From IMG/VR virus record IMGVR_UViG_3300042938_000567, positions 1 to 60,530 of that record: a stretch of 60,530 nucleotides of DNA; one strand, 5' to 3'. The DNA is from a virus. Taxonomy: Duplodnaviria; Caudoviricetes. A program made the position numbers and the translations under genes. The notes beneath the pieces are model-generated. The model was not told the DNA's origin, did no database searches, and saw only the letters and a list, made by a program, of their open reading frames with translations. This document shows positions 3,775 through 52,157 of this stretch, piece by piece; position 1 is the stretch's first letter, and each line of letters opens with the position of its first letter.

Positions 3775-3790
3775 TTATCGTTAACGATAA
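3775..3790. promoter_or_regulatory. TTATCG-N4-CGATAA palindrome
   Basis: TTATCGTTAACGATAA immediately upstream of the ATG at 3767. Confidence 0.85.
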
Positions 3791-4054
3791 TTAGGTAACA
3801 GGAAGCGCAGCAGCAACAGCTTCGTTAAGAACAAAGAGTTGTTGGTCTTCCGTTGTTTGCACAAAACAGTTTTCAGTTACTGGAGTAAGTGAGCCGATTG
3901 TAGCAAAAGCTAGATAGAATTGATAGAGTTTGGAAGCGTCACTAGCTGCATCAAAGCAACCAAAAGAAATTGGAGTAATACCAGCAGCAGCAGACACCGT
4001 AATCAGAAGTGGGTATAATTTATTGCGGTAAGGTAAGGATGTAAAGCAAGCCAT
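3791..4054 (-). CDS. Hypothetical virion protein
   Basis: 87-aa ORF in the capsid operon with an internal ..CF.. repeat. Confidence 0.6.
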   Translation of the reverse strand: MACFTSLPYRNKLYPLLITVSAAAGITPISFGCFDAASDASKLYQFYLAFATIGSLTPVTENCFVQTTEDQQLFVLNEAVAAALPVT

Positions 4055-4069
4055 AATTTTAAAAAGGGT

Positions 4070-4103
4070 TATGGGCAGGGAGGGTTAAAGACCTCCCTAC
4101 CCA
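4070..4103 (-). terminator. Hairpin / putative intrinsic terminator
   Basis: TGGGCAGGGAGG...CCTCCCTACCCA stem downstream of the 204-aa gene. Confidence 0.55.
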
Positions 4104-4118
4104 ATAATGGGGAATTGG

Positions 4119-4733
4119 TTAGTAGTAGATACCAACAACGTAGGCGTTCACATAAAGTGCGCCAACACGTCCGGCAGTATCTGCACCAGAAACAACGTCA
4201 ACACCAGCGTTTGCATAGGTGAAGGTAGTTGCATTAACAACAATTACTTCAGCTTGCAAATCATCAAAGGTGCTATCGGTCATGCTGGCAATCGTGATGA
4301 CATCACCCGTGGAGAAACCATGAGCAAGTGCGGTAACGATTGTAGCAACGCCCGAAGTACGGGAACTAGTTGCGGTTGCTTGACCAGCACCAACAGTTGT
4401 CTTGTGAAGACGAACGCTACGGGAGCCAGTGACTACAGGAGCGTTAGCAAGCAAAGCCAATGTGTTTGATGTACCTTGGTTATCAAGAGCATCAGTGATG
4501 GTGAGTGAGGAGGTGATGTTTTCGCCAGTGGTTCCGTTGTCAACGATCACAATTGGATCGGTGGCAGTGGTTCCGCGAGCATAGGCAGTCTCCAATACGA
4601 TGCTTGTTGGAAAGAACTTAGTTTCTTGGTCATTAAGAACAAGAAGATTAGCGTCTCCAGCAGCGAGAAGGTTAACGGCAATCGGGCCAAAAAGGTTAAC
4701 CCGATCATAAGCGAGTGGTCGTGAATTAGACAT
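4119..4733 (-). CDS. Putative capsid decoration/cement protein
   Basis: Directly follows the capsid gene; beta-rich with a ..AHGFSTGDVITI.. fibre-type motif. Confidence 0.55.
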   Translation of the reverse strand: MSNSRPLAYDRVNLFGPIAVNLLAAGDANLLVLNDQETKFFPTSIVLETAYARGTTATDPIVIVDNGTTGENITSSLTITDALDNQGTSNTLALLANAPVVTGSRSVRLHKTTVGAGQATATSSRTSGVATIVTALAHGFSTGDVITIASMTDSTFDDLQAEVIVVNATTFTYANAGVDVVSGADTAGRVGALYVNAYVVGIYY

Positions 4734-4754
4734 ATTATTTTTATTTAAGGTTGT

Positions 4755-4779
4755 GGGGAGAGGCTTTCGCCCCTCCCCT
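4755..4779 (-). terminator. Hairpin downstream of capsid gene A
   Basis: GGGGAGAGGC-TTTC-GCCCCTCCCC. Confidence 0.5.
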
Positions 4780-4786
4780 ATTTAAC

Positions 4787-48994: not shown

Positions 48995-50869
48995 TTAAGG
49001 TCTTGTATATGCACCGCCGATTTTGAAATTAGCCGTGAATGTTGTATTTGCAGTAAGTGTTGATGCTGTATTTCCTGTAGTAAATACTCCAACACATTGA
49101 GAATATAACGCGGAATCAACTCCAACAAATACATATTTCCCATTTTGGACTGTAGCTGCATTTGATAGCGTTGCTTGAACAGGGGCAGATAATGACCCAT
49201 ATGAAAATGGATATGTAATTGTAGTTGTTGCTGTAGATGCTCCATTTAATATGGTGGCAGAAGCAGCAATATTTATTTCTGGGAAAAAGAAATCCGCTCC
49301 ACTTGCAACAGTTCCAGCCTGCACTCTAAACACTTGAATTGATGACAACATCGTTGAGTGTATATTTAAATCTTTAATAAGAAACGGCCCAGTTGTTCCT
49401 GTGTATACTAATGGTGATCCTGTTCCTACAGATGATTGTTGAATGATAGCTAATAGTCCACTACAATCATTGATATAAGTATTATTCTCCATTGTAATGC
49501 TTGGTTGCACTAATGGCCTAGCATAGTGTGTTCCAACAAACACAATCATTCCTTGATTAGCATTAACAACAATTTCATTGTTTGTTATTTGAGTATGATA
49601 ATAATAATTTATTTTTTCCCAAAAAGAGGTAGACATAGTTCCAATAACTTTATTTGAAGTTGATGAACCCATGCTTATGTAGTTTTTATCAATAATAAAA
49701 TTACTACCAACAATTTCGGTGAAATATATTCCCGGCCCACTTGGGGCTGCAAATATTTTATTATTAATATAATTTACATATTCACCAGCAATTTCTGCTC
49801 CACCATATATTTCATTGTTTTGATATGTTATTCTGGAACAATTTCCATGAACATCTGCGCTAATATCAGAAACTAATTGATCGCTTTGTGTTTTTGAATT
49901 TTGGATTGTTACAAATTTTGTTCCAGTGTCACCATGTCCACCTAACGAAATCCCATGAACAGTACCATAACAATTACATTTATCAATCAACACGCTTTGA
50001 GAATCATCAATTACAATTCCATATCTATTATCAGTAATGCCCGTTGCAGTGCAAGTTGCTTTACTTTTTTTAATAGCGCAATCTATTGAGTTTCTTATGG
50101 ATAATGATGCGCTTGAGCCACCTGAAAACTTTGAGTTTTCAATATAAGAATTTTTTGTGTATTCTAAAATACATGAATATGTTGCGCTATTTGTTGATAC
50201 AACTTCTAAATCCCGTATAGTAATTTCTACTGGAGTAATTTTTTTGACGCTTATATTTGCACCAGTTGACCATAGTGCAACTGAATTTTCATCAGTCGTA
50301 ATTGTATTTCCAACCACGCTTCTTACATTAAACAATTGTCCAGTTTTGTAATAACTTCTGTGAAGCGAAAAACTAAAATCTGTAGTATTGATTAATTGCA
50401 TTACACTTCCAGAAACAAATGAACCTCCAGTAACTGAAAATACATTTGTTCCAAAACTTGGAGCAGATGCAAGTGTGTATTGCGTTGAATCTATTACTCC
50501 CTTAAAAGCTAGGTAGCCAGTAGTGAAATTTAACTTTGAGCCATTTCCTATAATTTGAACATCCTTCGATGTAATCTCAATTCCAGAACTGCAAGTGTAT
50601 TCTCCTTTTGGGAAAATAATTGTTTTCCCTGTATTTAATGCGTCTTCAATTGCTTGTCTGCTATCAACTGCCCCAGTAGGATCGGCTCCAAAGTCCAATA
50701 CATTCACCACATCAGCGAAACGATTAGCCAGCGAACGAGCAGTTGTGCTTCCAGTAGCGGTTGCTGTAAGCGAACTACCATTGCCATTCAATCCAATGAA
50801 ATTACCAGAGATGTCTCCTCCAGTTACATTGCCAAACAAACCTGATGTTCCGTCGAGAATTAGTGCCAT
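48995..50869 (-). CDS. Tailspike (beta-helix) 3
   Basis: VNVLDFGADPTGAVDSRQAIE..IFPKGEY. Confidence 0.85.
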   Translation of the reverse strand: MALILDGTSGLFGNVTGGDISGNFIGLNGNGSSLTATATGSTTARSLANRFADVVNVLDFGADPTGAVDSRQAIEDALNTGKTIIFPKGEYTCSSGIEITSKDVQIIGNGSKLNFTTGYLAFKGVIDSTQYTLASAPSFGTNVFSVTGGSFVSGSVMQLINTTDFSFSLHRSYYKTGQLFNVRSVVGNTITTDENSVALWSTGANISVKKITPVEITIRDLEVVSTNSATYSCILEYTKNSYIENSKFSGGSSASLSIRNSIDCAIKKSKATCTATGITDNRYGIVIDDSQSVLIDKCNCYGTVHGISLGGHGDTGTKFVTIQNSKTQSDQLVSDISADVHGNCSRITYQNNEIYGGAEIAGEYVNYINNKIFAAPSGPGIYFTEIVGSNFIIDKNYISMGSSTSNKVIGTMSTSFWEKINYYYHTQITNNEIVVNANQGMIVFVGTHYARPLVQPSITMENNTYINDCSGLLAIIQQSSVGTGSPLVYTGTTGPFLIKDLNIHSTMLSSIQVFRVQAGTVASGADFFFPEINIAASATILNGASTATTTITYPFSYGSLSAPVQATLSNAATVQNGKYVFVGVDSALYSQCVGVFTTGNTASTLTANTTFTANFKIGGAYTRP

Positions 50870-50873
50870 AATA

Positions 50874-51179
50874 TTATACGATTGTGTAGGTGCTTCCTGA
50901 TGGAACTGTTAATACAACTCCGGGGTTTACTGTGATTGGCCCTGCTGACATGGCATTGCGTCCAGTTGTGATGGTGTAGTCTGTTACCATTACTTGGTCA
51001 TTCTCGTAGAATACTCCAAAGGTATTTCCACCAGTAGGGGCTTTGCCGCCAGATGATCCTCCCGCCGCTTCTACAGCGATACGGGCGTAGTAAGCTGCGC
51101 GATCAGCAATCGCATTCATTGCGGACTCACTTGGGCCGCATGGATTGCATTTAGAACTTCTGGAATTTCCGCAACTCAT
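50874..51179 (-). CDS. Tail fibre adaptor
   Basis: FYENDQ..YTIT.GRNAMSAGPITVN..LTVPSGS domain. Confidence 0.65.
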   Translation of the reverse strand: MSCGNSRSSKCNPCGPSESAMNAIADRAAYYARIAVEAAGGSSGGKAPTGGNTFGVFYENDQVMVTDYTITTGRNAMSAGPITVNPGVVLTVPSGSTYTIV

Positions 51180-51185
51180 AGTTGA

Positions 51186-51201
51186 TTATCGTTAACGATA
51201 G
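51186..51201. promoter_or_regulatory. Palindrome variant, 1 mismatch
   Basis: TTATCGTTAACGATAG immediately upstream of the ATG at 51179. Confidence 0.7.
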
Positions 51202-51237
51202 GGTTAATTGTTGTCATTGCAAGGATTATTTTTGAAA

Positions 51238-52137
51238 TTATACTACCGTCCAAACACTACCCGGCGGTACTGTAACTACAACTCCACTAGCTACTGTGAC
51301 TGGGCCGAATGTTCCTGCGTTTTTAGATACTGGAATGCTGTAAGATGTATTTACTATTAGATCGTTAAGAAAGAAAATAGCGTCTGTCCCTGCGCCCGTT
51401 GCACCACCCGGTGATCCACTTGCCCCAGTTGCTCCGTCCAAACCAATAACGCCAGTAGCCCCAGTAGCTCCGTCTAATCCAGCAGTTCCAGTAGCACCCG
51501 TGGCTCCGTCTAGTCCAATAATGCCACTTGCACCAGTCGCTCCGTCTAGTCCAGTCGCGCCCGTAGCTCCAGTACTTCCTGTAGCCCCATCTAGACCAGT
51601 CGCACCAGTAGGGCCACCACTAGGCCCAGTTGATCCAGTTAAGCCTGTCGCACCAGTAGAACCAGAACCAGTTGCTCCAACTCCCCCAGTGAGTCCAGTT
51701 GCTCCGCGAGGGCCAACCATCCCAGTAGCTCCAGATGCCCCAATTGGCCCAGTAGCACCAATGCCCGTTGCACCAGTCGCGCCGCGGCATCCAGTAGCCC
51801 CCGTGGAACCTATCGAACCAGTGCTTCCAGTAAGCCCCGTACTTCCAGTAAGCCCAGTCAATCCTGTAGCTCCTGTGGTTCCGTTAATGCCAGCTAATCC
51901 CGTAGCTCCTGTGGCCCCATCGCCTGTGGCTCCAGTTGCTCCTGTTGGCCCCCCAGATGGCCCAGTAGACCCCGTAAGACCAGTTGCACCCGTTGCGCCC
52001 TCTCCCGTAGCACCAGTTGCTCCGCTTGCTCCGATAGCTTGTTGAGCGAGACACGCTGAATACGCCGCACTCTTAGCGGATTCTTTAGCTGACCTCGCAT
52101 AAGAGGCAACTATAATAGTCTCATTGCAATTACTCAT
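51238..52137 (-). CDS. Collagen-like tail fibre
   Basis: GATG repeats plus the same C-terminal domain as 50874-51179. Confidence 0.85.
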
Positions 52138-52141
52138 AATT

Positions 52142-52157
52142 TTATCGTTAACGATAA
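52142..52157. promoter_or_regulatory. TTATCG-N4-CGATAA palindrome
   Basis: TTATCGTTAACGATAA immediately upstream of the ATG at 52137. Confidence 0.85.

Follow-up and report, generated by a model that had tools for sequence, protein, structure and literature searches.

A dispersed 16-bp palindrome in a family of uncultured lake phages and a candidate ParB-fold protein that may read it

The palindrome and its sites in the phage genome

The window analysed here is the whole virus record IMGVR_UViG_3300042938_000567, the 60,530-nucleotide (nt) genome of an uncultured lake phage (Duplodnaviria; Caudoviricetes) that is rated 100% complete, and the element under study is a 16-bp palindrome, TTATCG-KWWM-CGATAA, dispersed over it. 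A pattern scan finds 13 perfect and 3 one-mismatch copies, all of them exactly where an initial annotation of the sequence had placed them. The motif is a real, strongly selected and family-wide DNA element of a known general kind, and its sequence, the phage family that carries it and the candidate for its binder are new. The genes of this phage that can be named include those for an XRE-type helix-turn-helix (HTH) protein, a lambda-O/DnaD-like initiator, a DnaB-like helicase, an SF2 helicase, an exonuclease, a RusA-like resolvase, a dCMP deaminase, a GT1 glycosyltransferase and HNH and NUMOD3 endonucleases, and on the structural and packaging side a weakly matching TerL, pectate-lyase-like tailspikes and collagen-like fibres. 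Most structural proteins gave no matches, and no tRNA genes were found in the window.

The enrichment of the palindrome is real under three null models. Perfect TTATCG-N4-CGATAA did not occur once in 100 dinucleotide-preserving shuffles of the window, the one-mismatch pattern had a mean of 0.07 and a maximum of 1 in the same shuffles, and at the two-mismatch level there are 20 matches where the shuffles predict 2.1. The half-sites TTATCG (30 occurrences) and CGATAA (28 occurrences) should by chance form 0.014 pairs at a spacing of 4, compared with the 13 observed. When synonymous codons were shuffled within each gene such that all proteins were kept (300 replicates), exact sites inside genes had a mean of 0.087 and a maximum of 2 versus 5 observed, and sites with at most one mismatch had a mean of 1.2 and a maximum of 4 versus 7 observed. 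Hence the excess noted in the initial annotation persists against both shuffled and codon-preserving sequence, and no other palindrome in the window proved enriched when every arm length of 5-7 bases was combined with gaps of 0-10. The constraint on the spacer that had been claimed is also borne out, as it reads K-W-W-M in 16 of 16 copies, so that the whole 16-mer is a degenerate palindrome. The base next outward on the 3' side is G in just 1% of 1312 flanks of family sites, which brings the footprint closer to 18 bp.

The sites are not wholly coding in 9 of 16 cases, where 8.4% would be expected (P = 1.4e-6), and the surroundings described in the initial annotation are found in each particular: five copies are at the starts of structural genes, two are just upstream of −35 boxes, one is just downstream of a promoter-like site that had been called the capsid promoter, one follows a gene that had been called TerS-like, and seven are inside coding sequence. 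The five at structural-gene starts occupy the gaps before these genes, all of them on the minus strand, and precede the start codons by −1 to 17 nt. The copy at 3775..3790 (perfect, spacer TTAA) abuts the stop codon of the open reading frame (ORF) 3791-4054 (minus strand) and is 7 nt upstream of the ATG of ORF 3492-3767 (minus strand), while that at 10528..10543 (perfect, TTTA) holds the stop codon of an ORF of 129 amino acids (aa; 10535-10924, minus strand) and stands 17 nt upstream of the ATG of an 814-aa portal-like ORF (8066-10510, minus strand). The last base of the copy at 41389..41404 (perfect, TTAA) is the A of the ATG of ORF 40427-41389 (minus strand), the copy at 51186..51201 (one mismatch, ending CGATAG) is 6 nt upstream of the ATG of ORF 50874-51179 (minus strand), and that at 52142..52157 (perfect, TTAA) is 4 nt upstream of the ATG of a collagen-like tail-fibre gene (51238-52137, minus strand).

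The two copies associated with −35 boxes are 17-18 nt upstream of perfect TTGACA sequences and are centred near −60. That at 14168..14183 (perfect, TTAC) lies 3 nt past the stop codon of 13772-14164 (plus strand) and 18 nt upstream of TTGACA at 14202-14207, and that at 31957..31972 (perfect, GTAA) lies 17 nt upstream of TTGACA at 31939..31934, in front of the operon that encodes P0001, the candidate binder. Read on the minus strand, the latter copy begins in the U-tract of a strong terminator hairpin (32008..31979); read on the plus strand, the copy at 24420..24435 (perfect, GTTC), which is 32 nt past the stop codon of ORF 24468-25043 (minus strand; protein P0002, the so-called TerS-like protein), begins in the U-tract after a shorter GC-rich hairpin. 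The copy at 6395..6410 (perfect, TAAA) is ~25 nt downstream of a minus-strand promoter-like site (6461..6434; TTGACA, 16 nt, TATGTT) that precedes ORF 4787-6199 (minus strand).

The in-gene copies are at 12687..12702 (perfect, GAAC) in the TerL gene (10949-12799, plus strand), where the motif is read V-I-G-T-D-K; at 15965..15980 (perfect, GAAA) in the DnaB-like helicase gene (15539-16789, plus strand); at 21128..21143 (perfect, GTAA) in ORF 20845-21387 (plus strand), a phrog_3603 member that had been labelled 'SSB'; and at 26158..26173 (one mismatch, beginning TAATCG) in the SF2 helicase gene (25920-27542, plus strand). The others are at 30264..30279 (perfect, GTAA) in a 293-aa ORF (29849-30730, minus strand), 456 nt upstream of the start of the P0001 gene; at 36457..36472 (perfect, TTTC on the plus strand and GAAA on the sense strand) in a 1879-aa ORF (32084-37723, minus strand); and at 43753..43768 (one mismatch, beginning ATATCG) in a 615-aa ORF (42111-43958, minus strand). 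The CGA-TAA reading frame is never used on the sense strand, which is why sites are often found at gene ends. The stretches described as free of the motif are empty in the window scan (43.8-51.2 kb, and 52.2-60.5 kb plus 1-3.8 kb), and these two blocks are poorly conserved in relatives.

Perfect TTGACA −35 boxes are present before operons near 6461, 10955, 14202, 25078 and 31939, and a Shine-Dalgarno-like sequence precedes only 14 of the 74 gene starts in the window, whose upstream regions are A/T-rich. Taken together, these two features may be of use in narrowing the range of hosts. A fixed distance between motif and TTGACA across the family was considered and rejected, as the offsets are scattered and form small groups at 9, 17-18 and 29-30 nt. 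Next to the 14168 copy, a replication-initiator module (14214-15539; a 106-aa ORF and the O-like/DnaD-like protein) has no counterpart in four relatives (G001-G004), in which the adjoining DnaB gene is 68-99% identical, which suggests a swapped module with that copy at one of its edges.

Such placement also raises the possibility that the element acts as RNA, in the form of a translation-control or transcript-end hairpin, or that it serves as a recombination linker for module exchange. Many of the boundary sites are 0-10 nt from a start codon and so within the ribosome-binding zone, in a genome with few Shine-Dalgarno-like starts; two sites merge with the U-tracts of terminators; and the 14168 copy is exactly at the edge of the swapped replication module. 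On the other hand, 47 of the 94 sites in nine genomes are inside genes, on either strand, and the TerL and DnaB sites are conserved with no module boundary near them. Together with the patterns of variation considered next, this makes an RNA or recombination role very improbable in our judgement.

Conservation across the phage family and selection on the DNA

Relatives of TerL in the viral collection number 271, and of these the best 80 (85-100% identical) were examined. Every one of the 80 loci holds at least one copy of the motif, and two copies recur at constant positions, one of them 421 nt ahead of the TerL start and the other 1,738 nt inside the gene. Relatives that are rated 100% complete have 12, 12, 11 and 10 copies (G001-G004), 13 copies (G009) and 11 copies (G010), while an 88% complete genome (G008) has 10 and a 30-kb fragment (G007) has 7, and a reversed-pattern control gives 0 in the record of every relative. 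What had been noticed in one genome is therefore conserved in related phages, at 10-13 copies per complete relative, and the motif marks the whole phage family. Copy number stays at about a dozen while the positions are partly kept and partly turned over. The motif is also a practical marker for these phages, in that 98 of the 110 stretches among the matches listed for one exact 16-mer in the viral collection share proteins with the window, the other 12 being unrelated and single-copy. Near-identical DNA is present in lake-water metagenome runs from more than a dozen studies, and cultured phages gave only short, low-coverage DNA matches to the window. Contigs from RNA libraries (X15-X17, sediment and freshwater metatranscriptomes) cover 27-30 of 30 bins of positions 1-20000 at 90-100% likeness, which is not in itself proof of transcription.

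Homologous 216-nt stretches around each site were aligned, and at the 14 of 16 sites that have homologues the identity of the arms is 0.93-1.00 compared with 0.69-0.95 in the flanks; no homologous stretches were found for sites 24420 and 36457, and the latter site was found in the orthologous gene of G001-G004. The site is intact in 25 of 25 distinct homologous stretches at 3775, in all 14 homologues at 6395, in 45 of 52 at 10528 and in 49 of 52 at 12687, and it is identical in all eight homologues at 41389. At the TerL site the arms are 0.98 identical and the flanks 0.69, with the flanks varying at third codon positions and the motif columns fixed, and at the DnaB site all 27 distinct homologues are identical over the motif against a flank identity of 0.80. 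The window's imperfect copies follow the same trend, the SF2 helicase site being perfect in two of its three homologues and the 43753 site keeping its inner 14 bases while the outermost bases vary; the outermost base is also often changed at 14168, where 11 rows read CTATCG. In orthologous sites the spacers drift (TTAA, TTTA and GTTA; GAAC, GAAA and GTAA) yet remain K-W-W-M.

Changes in the arms are few, affect the outermost base on one side only, and were never seen to be compensatory. An RNA hairpin formed by the motif would be weak, with 6-8 pairs, 2 G-C pairs in the 6-pair stem and −3.7 to −9.3 kcal/mol, and the K..M and W..W symmetry of the spacer would be meaningless in a tetraloop. The terminator scan of the window did not list the motif itself, and the weak stem and the non-compensatory variants do not fit an intrinsic terminator or regulatory RNA hairpin, whose stem would be stable, GC-rich and maintained by compensatory changes. 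Symmetric degeneracy, the lack of compensatory changes, the weak hairpin and the conserved copy number all point to recognition of the motif as double-stranded DNA by a symmetric dimer rather than as an RNA structure. The proposal in the initial annotation that a dimeric protein binds the palindrome fits these same features.

The motif is also present in a distant phage, G006 (48.8 kb), whose TerL is ~30% identical to that of the window and whose 6 sites are all inside genes and all at places non-orthologous to those of the window. The occurrence of the same exact motif in two very different lineages could come about in phages of one host, and this could mean that a host DNA-binding protein, either a transcription factor or a nucleoid-associated protein, reads the motif and that the phages plug into host regulation or organisation. 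Such a reader would also suit the two sites near −60 of sigma-70-like promoters, which is the classical activator position. Most sites, however, are away from promoters. Moreover, the family avoids 6-bp palindromes to an extreme extent, with 23 of 64 absent from the window (356 observed versus 754 expected from a fourth-order model; for example TGCGCA 0 versus 15.8, CCATGG 0 versus 15.2 and AACGTT 0 versus 12.8) and 23-31 absent from the relatives compared (G003, G008 and G009), which suggests heavy restriction pressure from the family's host. In G006 only 4 are absent, hinting at a different host or restriction load and so counting mildly against a host reader common to both lineages. To our knowledge no known consensus matches the motif. 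Its three commonest 16-mer forms were not found in the literature searched, and a search with both half-sites together with 'phage' and 'inverted repeat' returned only matches that seem incidental from their titles and the beginnings of their abstracts.

A further observation relates to the host. One contig of the family (contig C3 of G011, locus L214; 51.8 kb, TerL 87% identical, 13 copies of the motif) is filed in a 0.8-Mb bin titled as a Candidatus Woesearchaeota archaeon, and it was all that a scan of a genome collection returned. All 13 copies are on that contig and the other ~750 kb of the bin has none, which would count against a host reader were this the host, but the contig is probably mis-binned, because the promoters of the phage are sigma-70-like and its replication genes are of bacterial type. 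Overall, we regard a host protein as an unlikely reader of the motif.

Candidate binders encoded by the phage

The most likely reader is predicted to be the phage's own P0001 (28845..29807, minus strand; 320 aa), which from its modelled structure would have a central domain of the ParB/KorB/Noc/SopB type. The protein has an acidic helical N-terminal part, a ParB-type HTH DNA-binding domain at residues ~156-261 and a C-terminal five-strand domain at residues 270-315, and it matched no Pfam or PHROG family, including Pfam at E-values up to 10. Residues 101-320 were modelled with a mean predicted local distance difference test (pLDDT) value of 94.8 from an alignment of 74 sequences. Foldseek found nothing with the full-length model, but with the domain against the PDB the ten top-ranked rows are without exception ParB, Noc or P1 ParB, at a probability of up to 0.99, with the Noc DNA-binding domain on its site at rank 17 and VirB and SopB lower. 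A search independent of Foldseek ranks first the DNA-binding domain of ParB in complex with parS (Z 8.5, root-mean-square deviation 3.2, 96 residues), and Z is 7.1 for Spo0J, 6.5 and 6.3 for KorB and 6.0 and 5.3 for SopB; six of the ten rows with Z of at least 5 are ParB, Spo0J, KorB or SopB and four are Raf1, while generic HTH proteins align over ~50 residues at Z ~4.2. Among viral models P0001 resembles two uncharacterised proteins of uncultured phages at E-values of at most 0.001 and, weakly, DUF3102 proteins. Invariant residues in an alignment of eight sequences (A1) include S187, Y188, T190, V191, S192 and R196, and the helix that carries them would be the recognition helix.

A homodimer of P0001 is predicted with a score of 0.79, compared with 0.00 for the best control. 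Among proteins solved as pairs 20 of 30 attain this mark, and among those solved as single chains 1 of 23 does, counts that hold only roughly here since the P0001 run used an alignment that we built ourselves. Contact agreement between runs was at least 87% and the partner pLDDT at least 80, and the predicted interface comprises a long helix (residues 140-170) and the C-terminal five-strand domain. The modelling therefore supports pairing of P0001 as a homodimer. Its likeness to ParB is at the fold level of the DNA-binding domain only: the N-terminal CTPase domain of ParB gave no Pfam match in P0001 (E up to 10), residues 1-95 of the full-length model match only helical hairpins of unrelated proteins, and no ParA-type ATPase was found among the 59 window ORFs scanned against Pfam, a scan that left out ~25 small ORFs. 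As neither a CTPase domain nor a ParA partner was detected, P0001 is classed by its DNA-binding fold and not as a ParB-family clamp.

The relatives of P0001 form 231 clusters at 50% identity (E-value of at most 0.001 in a profile search of 1.84 billion representatives). Nine of ten remote members sampled have no Pfam family, and the tenth, P0113 (512 aa), combines a P0001-type domain (residues 131-247) with a C-terminal N6/N4 DNA methylase domain. The remote homologues are mostly on short contigs, P0007 and P0021 being on contigs of ~57 kb; alignment A3 offered no stretch of sufficient conservation to serve as a query; P0008, P0010 and P0021 had no matches in the viral collection, and P0008 and P0156 had none in the metagenome collection. 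A tblastn search of cultured phages with P0001 gave no match, and the G006 homologue, when used as a query, matched nothing but G006 itself. The initial annotation had called the product of 28845-29807 LmbU-like, a label that no tool confirmed. An Atlas lead connects P0001 at 0.88 to an actinobacterial DUF6192 cluster, and Pfam gave no DUF6192 match. LmbU is described as a homodimer with a central HTH domain, so that the resemblance to P0001, whose dimer is predicted, is a general one (PMC6510168).

The P0001 gene is near the end of a minus-strand operon (31904..28560) that encodes an exonuclease, the 293-aa ORF, P0001 and a 93-aa ORF. Ahead of it are the terminator hairpin (32008..31979, minus strand), which has a 13-pair stem, and then a promoter-like site (31939..31912; TTGACA, 16 nt, TAGATT), with one motif copy at about −60 of this site and the second, already mentioned, inside the 293-aa ORF. 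A site is present in 58 of the 61 loci that have a P0001 homologue; 47 of the 61 have one 1.5-3 kb upstream, the place of the operon's promoter-like site, and 22 of the 61 have one ~470 nt upstream (400-560 nt). The two sites in and ahead of the operon suggest autoregulation.

Profile searches show that just seven window proteins have a relative in G006, namely the portal-like protein, the 129-aa protein, TerL, a 98-aa HNH endonuclease, two structural proteins and P0001. Of these P0001 is singled out because it alone has both a DNA-binding fold and a predicted dimer. The list of candidate binders in the initial annotation thus changes in its weights: the product of 28845-29807 gains, by its ParB-type fold, its predicted homodimer and its homologue in G006, while the XRE-type and TerS-like proteins, which were not found in G006, lose. 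Co-occurrence with the motif in G006 holds for P0001 without singling it out, given the six other shared proteins.

These considerations bear directly on whether another phage protein reads the motif, for packaging, immunity or site-specific nicking. The 129-aa protein (10535..10924, minus strand), encoded between TerL and the portal-like gene and possibly a small terminase, and the small HNH endonuclease (13010..13306, minus strand; 98 aa), which might cut or nick at the motif and is a weak candidate, occur in all eight other genomes compared, G006 included. The XRE-type protein (13320..13727, minus strand; 135 aa) is a bona fide HTH_3 protein, and one motif copy follows the gene for P0002 (24468..25043, minus strand; 191 aa) and another is between the genes for the 129-aa and portal-like proteins. 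Yet P0002, which had no Pfam or PHROG match, is found in seven of the eight other genomes and, like the XRE-type protein, not in G006. The 129-aa protein had no match in Pfam, PHROGs, Atlas or the PDB and no fold assignment. A protein the size of the HNH endonuclease would have little room for 16-bp specificity, and terminases normally have their recognition sites together in a single region, unlike a dozen spread singletons. The sequencing runs compared with the window, all in the form of contigs that could reveal no such ends, gave no place at which molecules begin or end. The divergent promoter region of the XRE gene has no copy of the motif and instead has a different 12-bp palindrome, TTGACAAGTCAA (13753-13764), which overlaps the −35 box between that gene and 13772-14164 and is likely the XRE protein's own operator, distinct from the dispersed motif. 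We consider it distinctly unlikely that one of these other phage proteins is the reader.

Several side observations concern other parts of this genome. A fibre gene cassette appears to be duplicated (917-3264 and 54779-58622): the 25-nt sequence ahead of the start of 917-1132 recurs unchanged ahead of that of 54779-54994, and both cassettes include PATR-repeat proteins (1129-2004 and 54991-55854) and a weak match to the N-terminal domain of Mtd, the major tropism determinant (2647-3264 and 57951-58622). No reverse transcriptase, and no integrase, was found among the window ORFs scanned. A cluster at 19005-21773 comprises the NUMOD3 endonuclease, the GT1 glycosyltransferase, the phrog_3603 protein and the dCMP deaminase and may hint at nucleotide or DNA modification. 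Terminal repeats were considered as packaging clues and set aside, as the 86- and 123-bp end repeats of G003 and G006 are motif-free and may reflect circular assemblies.

Proposed action and comparison with known systems

We propose that the motif is an operator-like double-stranded DNA element that is read by a homodimer of P0001 and that the bound dimers act genome-wide, a reading to which we give about even credence. That P0001 binds the motif, and what such binding does, we infer from the lines of evidence given above. The core would be TATCG-KWWM-CGATA within a footprint of 16-18 bp, each half being read by one subunit of the homodimer, and about a dozen single sites would be kept at operon boundaries, in short gaps before structural genes, and within conserved genes wherever the encoded protein can accommodate them. 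By analogy with KorB at its operator OB, or with the repressors of phage stoperators, the bound dimers would most probably act as silencers, roadblocks or insulators of transcription; alternatively, and by analogy with Noc or ParB, they might organise or tether the phage DNA.

A number of results weigh against this proposal. The Foldseek E-values are modest (0.1-0.3 for the ten best rows and 0.1 to 1 overall), the four Raf1 rows of the independent search score as high as those of the ParB family, the Z scores are of a size that, by the tool's own rating, helical domains commonly reach, and neither P0001 alignment gave a significant chain in profile searches of the PDB. Co-occurrence with the motif in G006 is shared by six proteins besides P0001, and the 5 kb on either side of the P0001 homologue in that genome are free of sites. 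Three loci (L270-L272) with P0001 homologues that are ~54% identical also have no site in the stretch examined; one of these loci is in G008, a genome that has all of its 10 copies in the first 25 kb. The contexts of the sites share no single promoter geometry. Lastly, the smallest gap between sites is larger than chance in G000-G004 (P 0.002-0.05, for related genomes that are not independent), but regular spacing fails as a general rule in G008 and G009, which have closer pairs.

A broader version of the proposal can be formulated, which we consider doubtful as a whole. P0001 might represent a large, unnamed family of phage proteins that keep only the DNA-reading half of ParB, with each lineage scattering its own palindrome over its genome as a self-mark. 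Dimers on these sites would keep operons silent or insulated until they are titrated out by replication, in effect a copy-number timer, or they would tether or organise the chromosome with neither ParA nor CTP. If this were true, these phages would have a counterpart of KorB and Noc that works by a different mechanism, and it would offer a possible explanation for the dyad repeats of other phages. Binding by P0001 would in itself show how one protein is applied to a whole phage genome and would supply both a name and a function for a family that is now 'hypothetical'. Dispersed palindromes in phages have been noted before, for example in the Cluster O mycobacteriophages, where no binder was named, and the handles available here are many natural relatives, DNA-level selection inside essential genes and one concrete candidate binder with a ParB-like fold.

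The closest working models are Noc or ParB and KorB of the IncP plasmid RK2, a plasmid that reportedly carries 12 OB sites. The OB operator is 16 bp and precedes promoters either by 4-10 bp or by 45 to >1,000 bp, and KorB has an N-terminal CTPase domain, forms a sliding clamp and has the partners KorA, TrbA and ParA (PMC11790492). The two cases are alike in having a 16-bp palindrome and a dimer with a ParB-type domain, with binding by P0001 being predicted, and in having sites near, far from and outside promoters; the long-range silencing of a ~60-kb replicon is KorB's. They are unlike in that neither a CTPase domain nor such partners were detected here, in that the sequence of the OB site is unrelated to the motif, and in that the one replicon is a plasmid and the other a phage. 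Noc and ParB likewise read palindromes of similar length with the domain type predicted for P0001. Noc sites are dispersed over the whole chromosome, whereas parS sites are few and clustered near the origin. Both proteins differ from P0001 in being CTP-dependent clamps with the ParB N-terminal domain, and they have no significant sequence similarity to it.

There are parallels in phages as well. Conserved inverted repeats in phiC31 of Streptomyces and dispersed centromere sites in the plasmid-prophage N15 are each said to be bound by one phage protein. The stoperators of Cluster A mycobacteriophages are dispersed repressor sites, often in short intergenic gaps, that block elongating RNA polymerase, and they are asymmetric, monomer-bound and oriented with transcription (PMC9283540, PMC4351075). 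The motif differs from a stoperator-type site in being a palindrome with symmetric degeneracy. Cluster O mycobacteriophages have a 17-bp dyad repeat, 5'-TGTTCGGNNNCCGAACA, in more than 30 copies, which lies both between and inside genes and mostly away from promoters, with a predicted binding dimer and a function given as unknown (PMC4351075). Of what has been described in phages, this repeat comes closest to the motif. Like that repeat, the motif has invariant inverted arms, a variable centre and many genome-wide copies in phages that are not obviously temperate, and so it falls within a class of dyad repeats that is descriptive and has no known mechanism (PMC4351075). The two differ in architecture (7-3-7 there and 6-4-6 here), in copy number (>30 and 10-13) and in their hosts and phages, which are unrelated, and no binder was proposed for the Cluster O repeat, whereas here one candidate stands out. 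The dispersed palindrome of these lake phages is most likely where a ParB-like DNA-binding dimer made by the phage docks, an instance of a little-understood genome-wide control that is known from a few other phages and plasmids.

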